Below the pieces are notes generated by a model. The model worked only from the letters and a program-made list of their open reading frames with translations. It did not search any database and was not told the origin of the DNA. Positions 1,105 through 4,902 of a stretch of DNA of 8,294 bases are shown one piece after another (the first letter of the stretch is position 1; each line of letters opens with the position of its first letter). Location: IMG/VR virus record IMGVR_UViG_2531839532_000007; one strand, written 5' to 3'. This stretch comes from a virus. Its lineage: Duplodnaviria > Heunggongvirae > Uroviricota > Caudoviricetes. A program made the translations under genes and the position numbers.

Positions 1105-1335
1105 TCAACTCAAGAGCCTTATTGCTGCTTCCAGAATTTCTTCTGAAGTAACATGTCGATCCGCGGCTACATAAATGACTTTATGATCTCCGGTCAGAGA
1201 TGGAAACCCTGCGGCCATTACAGTAAGGTGTGTTTTTTCGCCATTTGGATATTCACGCATGATGGTGTTAACTCCAGTCATCGCTGGCACTACCACTGCT
1301 GGTTCAGAGTTAAAAAAAACTATGATTTTTTTCAT
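1105..1335 (-). CDS. ynfN: Small prophage protein in the YnfN position between cspI and gnsB (76 aa from ATG 1335; 51 aa from ATG 1260)
   Basis: The ORF-track entry 1105..1377 begins at a TTG. The first ATG (1335) gives MKKIIVFF…; the internal ATG at 1260 gives a 51-aa product MREYPNGEKTHLTVMAAGFPSLTGDHKVIYVAADRHVTSEEILEAAIRLLS with a GGAG about 11 nt upstream. Symbol is from synteny and the recalled 51-aa length of K-12 YnfN. Confidence 0.5.
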   Translation of the reverse strand: MKKIIVFFNSEPAVVVPAMTGVNTIMREYPNGEKTHLTVMAAGFPSLTGDHKVIYVAADRHVTSEEILEAAIRLLS

Positions 1336-1377
1336 GATGTTACCGTAGTATGTGAGTATCCATCGAATAGACACCAA

Positions 1378-1402
1378 GCAAAAAAGCTCCCGAAGGAGCC
1401 TT
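1378..1402 (-). terminator. Intrinsic terminator downstream of cspI
   Basis: Minus-strand reading AAGGCUCC-UUCG-GGAGCUUU followed by UUUUUU: a GC-rich stem closed by a UUCG tetraloop. An A-run precedes it on the plus strand, so it is partly bidirectional. Confidence 0.6.
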
Positions 1403-1606
1403 CATTTTCACTTTTTTAAATCCAACGACAGACGGCTGGCATTTAAGTATTGTGAAATATTATCAAATGTAATCATCATTGATTTACAAAAGATACATTT
1501 TGCCCCGAAAGGATTCATGTCAGAAACATCAAAAGATGATGTTCTATACTGGGAACCATGACAACACGGGCATCTAAAGTGAATATGGTTTGTAATATTG
1601 TCTACC

Positions 1607-1819
1607 TCAAAGCGCCACTACATGAACAGCGGCAGGACCTTTAGGTCCGTTCTCAATACCAAATTCAACTTCCTGATTCTCAGTTAATGTTTTGAAATCG
1701 TTGCTCTGAATTGCTGAGAAATGGACAAACACATCTTTGCTGCCATCTTTCGGCGTGATGAAACCAAAACCTTTTTCAGGGTTAAACCATTTCACTAAAC
1801 CAGTCATTTTGTTAGACAT
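1607..1819 (-). CDS. cspI: Cold-shock protein CspI (CspA family, 70 aa)
   Basis: [70 protein letters not shown] carries the RNP1/RNP2 motifs (KGFGFI, VFVHF). The leader ends in AAAGGTAATAATT-ATG, like the cspA leader. Confidence 0.95.
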
Positions 1820-1999
1820 AATTATTACCTTTTGAAGAAATTAGCCCTTGGGCAGAATGGTCCGAAAAAAAATATCAGAGAGAAAAACCAACAAGGAAAT
1901 CTCAAGAGGTACAAATAATAAAATTATAACAATGACTGCTTCAGATAAATTTGTAACAAACCAGAACACCATTAACGCATGATTAACCACCCATAGCAA
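1820..1999 (-). promoter_or_regulatory. cspI promoter (-35 TTGCTA at 1999..1994, -10 GTTAAT at 1976..1971) and ~145-nt 5' UTR
   Basis: cspA-type architecture with a 17-bp spacer and an AT-rich upstream region. The 11-mer ATGCGTTAATG spanning the -10 is identical to that of the cspB promoter in this window. Predicted leader length is about 145 nt. Confidence 0.45.
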
Positions 2000-3956: not shown

Positions 3957-4127
3957 ATGTCAGAACGTAAAAACTCAAAATCACGCCGTAATTATCTCGT
4001 TAAATGTTCCTGCCCAAACTGCACCCAAGAGTCAGAACACAGTTTTTCAAGAGTACAAAAAGGTGCCCTTTTGATCTGCCCTCATTGCAACAAAGTATTC
4101 CAGACAAATCTTAAAGCTGTAGCCTGA
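3957..4127 (+). CDS. Small zinc-ribbon protein (56 aa, CxxC…CxxC), antisense to the late operon
   Basis: MSERKNSKSRRNYLVKCSCPNCTQESEHSFSRVQKGALLICPHCNKVFQTNLKAVA with an AGGAAA Shine-Dalgarno 6 nt before ATG 3957. The ORF-track start at 3906 has a poorer Shine-Dalgarno. It may correspond to a small Qin protein annotated in recent K-12 releases, but I cannot name it with confidence. Confidence 0.5.
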   Translation: MSERKNSKSRRNYLVKCSCPNCTQESEHSFSRVQKGALLICPHCNKVFQTNLKAVA

Positions 4128-4208: not shown

Positions 4209-4490
4209 TGAGATTGTGGTGCTTTTTGTGGGAGTCATCCACTTACGCACTTTGTTTTGCCATGCCAGCAGTTAGCTTCTGCTGTAAAACTATTCATGCA
4301 GCAAACCTGCACTTCACCACAATGGTTAGCATACTTTTCCTGATTAAGATTTTGCCAAATATGCTAGCCATTGTTTCATGTATTGGACCTCCTTACTTTT
4401 TATTAAAGAGATCCAATATTCACTACTCTGTCCGTATCTCTACTCAGGCATCAGCCTTCTTCGTTATCGTATACAGACGAGCGATGAATT

Positions 4491-4706
4491 TTAATCAGTA
4501 ATGATGACATTTGCTGCTGCAGGACCTTTAGCACCACTCTCTATAGAGAAGGTAACCTTTTGACCTTCAAATAAGGTTCGATAATTATCATTCTGAATCG
4601 CAGAAAAATGCACAAACACATCTTTACTACCATCAACAGGAGAAATAAAGCCGAAACCTTTATCAGCGTTAAACCATTTTACTAAACCAGTCATTTTATT
4701 TGACAT
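4491..4706 (-). CDS. cspB: Cold-shock protein CspB (CspA family, 71 aa)
   Basis: [71 protein letters not shown] with RNP motifs; AAGGAA Shine-Dalgarno upstream; divergent from cspF as in K-12. Confidence 0.95.
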
Positions 4707-4849
4707 TCTACATTCCTTAACTTGAGCCTTTCGGCATAAATGGTTTGCATAACAGAAACGACTTCGTACTTAATTGGAGAGACTCAAAGAAGGAATAAGT
4801 GAATAACACCTGAAATGAGAACTGCTTTAGTAAACTACTTCGTATATCG

Positions 4850-4902
4850 TCTGTTCTTCAAACCGACGCAATCATTAACGCATAGTTGAACATATGAAGC
4901 AA
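4850..4902 (-). promoter_or_regulatory. cspB promoter (-35 TTGCTT at 4902..4897, -10 GTTAAT at 4879..4874) with a cold-box-like element (TGAAGAACAGA, 4860..4850)
   Basis: 17-bp spacer and AT-rich UP-like region. The element just after the predicted start site matches the cspA cold box TGACGTACAGA at 9 of 11 positions. Predicted 5' UTR is about 160 nt. Confidence 0.45.

Follow-up and report, generated by a model that had tools for sequence, protein, structure and literature searches.

A 36-codon reading frame between cspI and its terminator in the Qin prophage is the C-terminal part of ynfQ, a ymcF-type gene

What lies in the long interval between cspI and its transcription terminator? The question is raised by an 8,294-nucleotide stretch of viral DNA (the window, taken at its full length), in which a first-pass annotation reported an unannotated 36-codon ORF with a CxxC motif on the minus strand, ending against a UUCG-loop terminator, and read it as either a small protein or a structured 3' UTR. 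The ORF is present at 1518..1408 and encodes MNPFGAKCIFCKSMMITFDNISQYLNASRLSLDLKK exactly as stated (ORF listing). The interval is indeed long: about 229 nt lie between the stop codon of cspI (1609-1607) and position 1378, where the RNA 3' end has been mapped. The window as a whole maps to Qin, a prophage of E. coli K-12, from hokD/rem to ynfO, and the segment 1350-1900 shows 100% identity to E. coli K-12 MG1655 and likewise to many other E. coli chromosomes. On its minus strand, RefSeq places cspI, ynfQ, ynfR, and ynfN, in that order. What was reported as an ORF makes up the C-terminal 58% of ynfQ (its last 36 codons), so the observation was real yet mis-delimited: the reading was right about a small protein and a terminator and wrong about size, start, and annotation status.

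A fragment of ynfQ

The features of the locus, all on the minus strand, are as follows.

1580..1965, minus: cspA-type thermoregulator mRNA element, covering the 5' UTR and the cspI coding region (Rfam RF01766)
1607..1819, minus: cspI coding sequence, the upstream cistron of the operon, stop TGA at 1609-1607 (RefSeq and ORF listing)
1604..1608, minus: Shine-Dalgarno (SD) sequence of ynfQ, GAGGT, overlapping the cspI TGA and lying 7 nt before the ATT (sequence)
1408..1596, minus: ynfQ coding sequence, 62 codons plus stop, ATT start at 1596-1594, TGA at 1410-1408 (RefSeq WP_071524604.1)
1486..1572, minus: invariant core with two Cys knuckles, CPCC(HGSQYR) and C-IF-C, a putative zinc ribbon (motif scan)
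1408..1518, minus: ynfQ codons 27-62, the 36-codon ORF, no independent gene (ORF listing)
1378..1403, minus: intrinsic terminator, with stem-loop 1403..1382, UUCG loop 1394-1391, U-tract 1385-1380, and RNA 3' end 1378
1340..1405, minus: ynfR coding sequence, 21 aa (MKAPSGAFLLGVYSMDTHILR), beginning 2 nt past the ynfQ stop and spanning the terminator (RefSeq)
1105..1335, minus: ynfN coding sequence, 76 aa, 3' of the terminator, with a full-length match to phrog_3425 (RefSeq)

The reading frame does not begin at the ATG at 1518, and the 36-codon extent was too short: upstream of this ATG the frame is open as far as a TAG at 1620-1618, and the annotated coding sequence begins within it at the ATT. 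The shorter ORF was reported because the ORF finder accepts ATG, GTG, and TTG as starts and not ATT. RefSeq and Pfam already list the gene itself, its family, and the coordinates of its ATT start; the finding as first stated therefore adds nothing new, and the description as unannotated has to be withdrawn. The RefSeq product names are “cold-shock protein” and “cold shock small protein YmcF” (WP_071524604.1). The Pfam family PF23641 (YmcF-like) aligns over all 62 of its profile positions with residues 1-62 of YnfQ; the score is 111.8 bits, where the cutoff is 27 (E 1.7e-32). A protein search returned 132 relatives, all with PF23641 and mostly of 62 aa, in Escherichia, Citrobacter, Salmonella, Klebsiella, Raoultella, Kosakonia, Enterobacter, and other genera.

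It is highly probable that the ORF is part of ynfQ, a Qin paralogue of ymcF, carried with cspI on a bicistronic cold-shock mRNA and started at AUU. In the mechanism proposed, a cspA-type cold-shock leader would drive the cspI-ynfQ mRNA, and ribosomes would initiate ynfQ at the AUU at 1596-1594 through a strong GAGGU SD that overlaps the cspI UGA, 10 nt upstream. From this overlap we infer that ynfQ translation is probably coupled to that of cspI. The product would be a 62-aa protein whose two Cys knuckles most likely bind a single zinc ion as a zinc ribbon, with a variable helix at the C terminus. For most transcripts the 3' end would fall at the UUCG hairpin with its U-tract, 4 nt past the ynfQ stop; transcripts that read through would express ynfR and ynfN.

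The leader in this scheme corresponds to the RF01766 match at 1580..1965, which scores 112.8 bits against a gathering score of 78 (Rfam). In published RNA-seq data, cspI, ynfQ, and ynfN are co-regulated (6.5-, 5.9-, and 5.8-fold), their SspA dependence is 38, 42, and 51, respectively, and ynfQ is labelled “cold shock induced” (PMC11228462). Term-seq also maps a 3' end inside the cspI leader, at MG1655 1638774(-) or window 1926 (PMC7815308 supplement), a hint that transcripts are terminated early or processed within the thermoregulator. RF01766 matches the window a second time, at 4475-4867 on the minus strand, over cspB.

Conservation of the locus was assessed in 80 enterobacterial genomic loci with a ymcF-type gene, and dN/dS was estimated from Nei-Gojobori counts over 66 unique homologous coding sequences. 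The protein is 62 aa long in 70 of the 80 loci. ynfQ directly follows a cspA-family gene: the cspI stop lies 10 nt upstream of ynfQ, and an intact csp gene is adjacent in 48/80 homologous loci. The whole ynfQ coding sequence is under purifying selection, with dN/dS of about 0.11. Codons 2-26 have a ratio of about 0.08 and the core (codons 7-40) one of about 0.05; the estimate rises to about 0.17 over codons 27-62 and to about 0.45 in the tail (codons 47-62). The 25 codons omitted from the 36-codon ORF are therefore the more constrained part of the gene.

These comparisons also bear on the two alternatives to the 62-codon gene. An independent 36-aa protein could be translated from the ATG at 1518, alone or as a second isoform beside full-length YnfQ; the ATG and the open frame do exist in K-12, and internal starts are known in bacteria. 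Conservation in relatives, a check set beforehand, mostly goes against this shorter unit, whose ATG is missing from 76/80 loci, while the 62-codon frame is intact. Met at residue 27 is confined to four Qin-type copies from E. coli, Shigella, or E. ruysiae, and elsewhere among the 80 loci the residue is Lys, Arg, Ser, Gln, Gly, Ala, Asn, or Thr. Even in E. coli variants of about 95% identity, codon 27 is AGA or AGG, with the ATT, the SD, and the frame intact, and PGAP calls a 62-aa YmcF-family protein there. The internal ATG has no SD, as the first-pass annotation had noticed (anti-SD duplex +0.3 kcal/mol). A start at this position would split the conserved CPCC...CIFC four-Cys motif in half and leave the product only one of the two knuckles, constraint is strongest upstream of it, and the 36-aa sequence taken alone matches no family in NCBIfam. 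A stand-alone 36-aa protein is thus rejected on conservation, the absent SD, and the split motif, and the internal-start reading as a whole retains very little probability.

The other alternative, that the 200 nt between cspI and the terminator are a non-coding structured 3' UTR, has two points in its favour: a stop codon precedes the region and a terminator follows it, and the Rfam cspA element reaches a few bases into it. Substitutions are, however, synonymous in their great majority (pS about 0.77, pN about 0.19), the 62-codon frame is kept in the same 70 loci, with an invariant amino-acid core, and the predicted fold is unexceptional (z only -1.68 against shuffles; 12/200 shuffles fold as well). 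On pN/pS and the fold z-score the UTR reading is rejected, and the probability that remains to it is negligible. Of the two options offered at first, the small protein stands, as the annotated 62-aa YnfQ and not as a 36-aa peptide.

The ATT start codon and the upstream csp gene

If ynfQ is read as a 62-codon gene, its start is a near-cognate codon. Comparison of the loci indicates that the ATT at 1596-1594 is the true start. The homologous codon, which precedes the first Cys by eight codons, is ATT in 54, ATG in 22, and ATC in 4 of the 80 loci, and an AAGG, GAGG, or AGGAG motif lies 5-14 nt upstream of it in all 80. In K-12, predicted anti-SD pairing before the ATT is the strongest of the operon (-6.9 kcal/mol, against -3.9 before cspI). 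No canonical in-frame start precedes codon 27 of K-12 ynfQ. More generally, in 22 of the 58 ATT/ATC loci, K-12 included, the frame from the upstream stop to the first Cys codon is free of canonical starts, so that the core would be translatable there only from ATT or ATC. Some upstream in-frame canonical codon exists in 33 ATT/ATC loci, at non-conserved positions.

AUU initiation yields about 1-2% of AUG initiation in reporter assays, and infC and pcnB are the only confirmed AUU starts in E. coli named by the literature searched. The ynfQ/ymcF start shares with these two a near-cognate AUU conserved over evolutionary distance. Unlike theirs, it is supported by annotation and comparison: direct experimental support for YnfQ synthesis or for the AUU start (N-terminal mapping, start-site ribosome profiling, or tagging) was not found in the literature searched, and the Weaver, Meydan, Nakahigashi, and PIRT-Seq main texts make no mention of ynfQ/ymcF. 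It also differs from infC and pcnB in lying 9-10 nt past the stop of a highly expressed upstream cistron, a placement that suggests coupling rather than IF3 autoregulation.

The identity of the start codon follows the state of the upstream csp gene. Where an intact, separate csp ends 9-10 nt upstream (48 loci), the start is ATT or ATC without exception (non-ATG:ATG 48:0). Where csp is absent, degenerate, or fused (32 loci), 22 genes start with ATG and another three carry it as their second codon. A naive Fisher test gives p 2e-12 for this association, although all the ATG loci come from about three clades (Klebsiella/Raoultella; Enterobacter/Silvania/Leclercia; and C. sedlakii) and represent few independent events. 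The pattern fits a near-cognate start that is tolerated or favoured where ribosomes terminating on csp feed initiation. A stronger form of this idea, which we regard as possible and propose only tentatively, is that selection keeps the AUU/AUC start of ymcF-type genes specifically under translational coupling to an upstream csp whose stop lies inside the SD, 9-10 nt before the start. Synthesis of YmcF/YnfQ might then be a low, fixed fraction of Csp synthesis, or might be sensitive to IF3 fidelity in cold shock, and AUG would appear where csp has decayed or fused. If true, the few E. coli genes listed as starting at AUU would gain a conserved coupling-dependent class. How expression of this cold-shock partner protein is set could be approached through the connection of its ATT start with csp coupling.

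A different relation between the two frames would be a CspI-YnfQ fusion made by programmed frameshifting. The +1 frameshift of prfB uses a CUU-UGA shift site. The 3' end of cspI at 1612-1607 on the minus strand reads CUU UGA G, which matches that site; the +1 frame at the end of cspI is the ynfQ frame, with no stop between; and an in-frame csp-ymcF fusion occurs naturally in Citrobacter sedlakii. Nevertheless, CTT-TGA is found in only 7/48 csp-adjacent loci, the rest having CTC-TAA, GTA-TAA, or CGC-TAA, and in the seven loci with a 9-nt gap the csp stop falls in the reading frame of the ATT. cspI also lacks an SD-like stimulator at 3 nt upstream of its CUU, and all 22 ATG loci initiate independently. 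With a site that is not conserved and no stimulator, a prfB-type +1 frameshift is rejected as exceedingly improbable, and the CUU-UGA-G at the end of cspI is probably a coincidence. Separate initiation of ynfQ at its own AUU is the reading retained here.

In the C. sedlakii locus (about 1257-1686 of its sequence), csp and the ymcF-like gene are fused in one frame (MSIKKTGLVKEFN...HFKVTVMTPHIHFRCPCC...), and an ATG stands at the usual ymcF start.

Terminator and read-through genes

The hairpin behind ynfQ is a real intrinsic terminator, and it lies inside ynfR. As the first-pass annotation had noticed, it sits close behind the TGA of the ORF, its stem-loop (1403..1382) beginning after 4 nt. The stem has nine pairs with a UUCG loop and is followed by UUUUUU (-13 kcal/mol, z -2.26, by folding). 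A simple terminator scanner did not list this minus-strand hairpin. The annotation had also predicted termination at about 1380, and published Term-seq data bear this out to within a few nucleotides: a strong 3' end was mapped at MG1655 1638226(-), with the flank ...GAAGGCTCCTTCGGGAGCTTTTTTGC (Adams et al., 2021; PMC7815308 supplement), and the offset set by the published ynfR coordinates places it at window 1378. This 3' end was classed as “orphan” (Adams et al., 2021; PMC7815308) because ynfQ and ynfR are missing from the annotation used there. Most of the 80 loci have a hairpin and T-run within a few nucleotides 3' of the YmcF-like stop, so that csp, the ymcF-type gene, and the terminator form a conserved unit.

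Some transcripts must nonetheless pass this terminator, since SPA-tagged YnfR has been detected, with strong cold-shock induction (PMC6001520), and the ynfR ORF spans the hairpin. ynfN would probably need read-through as well, its start lying only about 43 nt from the mapped 3' end. The ynfR ORF is not conserved: it is reduced to 12 codons in the E. coli variants of about 95% identity, where it is flagged “too short,” and other genera lack it. One possibility is that the ORF is young or incidental and is translated when transcripts read through. Csp proteins have reported antitermination activity, and one may speculate that they promote read-through of this terminator.

In the genome record NZ_CP032667.1, ynfN (230 nt, 1335..1106) is flagged “frameshifted.” In the window, however, its ORF is uninterrupted for 76 codons and ends at the stop 1107-1105; the flag may be an annotation quirk.

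The YnfQ protein, ymcF, and phage copies

The CxxC motif first noticed was one of a pair. The first-pass annotation had seen the second knuckle (CIFC, residues 34-37); the first (CPCC, residues 9-12) lies upstream of the internal ATG, and the Cys residues concerned are C9/C11/C12 and C34/C37. In an alignment of 32 sequences, the invariant core comprises F7, C9, P10, C12, G14, Q16, R18, S20, D23, N28, P29, G31, A32, K33, I35, F36, C37, K38, and M41. C9, C12, and C37 are thus without exception, and C11 and C34 are conserved in at least 90%. The AlphaFold2 model of YnfQ has short beta-strands at both knuckles and a helix at 44-58 (mean pLDDT 74), and an independent AF3 model shows a rubredoxin-like topology with a metal site (PMC13348028); both present a metal-site mini-fold. 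YnfQ is most likely a single-zinc ribbon protein.

Searches with the model and the sequence gave no close neighbour of known function. Foldseek against the PDB returned no significant structural neighbour (E above 0.8, TM below 0.4), its best, non-significant matches being the zinc ribbons of TFIIE-alpha and ribosomal eL43. A PDB profile search gave only CPxCHG motif-level matches to UvrA and Rieske proteins (E 0.02 or worse), PHROGs had no match for YnfQ or YnfR, and the NCBIfam family ECs_2282_CxxC stayed below threshold for YnfQ (17.8 bits against a cutoff of 37). YnfQ shares with generic zinc-ribbon or rubredoxin-like mini-domains (TFIIE-alpha, eL43, YnfU/ECs_2282) two CxxC-type knuckles about 20 residues apart, placed on short beta-hairpins that in YnfQ are predicted. 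It has no significant sequence or structure match to them, however, and functional transfer is unjustified. A nucleic-acid- or ribosome-associated partner in cold shock would be a guess. In the same prophage, ynfU, annotated as a “putative zinc-binding” small protein (CPNC...CPHC), lies at about 3957-4127 on the plus strand, convergent with cspB.

The closest known system is ymcF, the E. coli K-12 core gene that follows cspG. Like YnfQ, YmcF has 62 aa, the invariant HFRCPCCHGSQYR...NP.GAKCIFCK core, and an ATT start; in both genes the SD overlaps the stop of the upstream csp, and a terminator lies directly 3' of the stop. The two proteins are about 65% identical. In contrast to the core gene, ynfQ is a prophage (Qin, lambdoid) copy behind cspI, and Met27 and the downstream ynfR belong to the Qin type only. 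The ynfQ type is found in about 2130 of 5426 complete E. coli genomes, and cspG-ymcF in 5414, that is, in nearly every one, with a YmcF/YnfQ core that is almost invariant across Enterobacteriaceae.

The start codon has practical consequences. ORF finders that need ATG, GTG, or TTG reduce ynfQ to a meaningless 36-codon piece, which is a warning for annotation. In 6 of 9 phage records with a YnfQ homologue, nothing is annotated beneath the match, a gap probably due to gene callers overlooking the ATT start. Unannotated homologues are present in the lambdoid phages PhiR42_1, PhiR63_1, 2H10, mEp460_ev081, and others. The name itself has also been used twice: the “ynfQ” of VanOrsdel et al. (2018) is a different ORF of 37 aa between ydfJ and ydfK, at MG1655 1632890-1633003 (PMC6001520). 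Later sources use ynfQ for the cspI-adjacent gene, a naming trap when supplements are mined.
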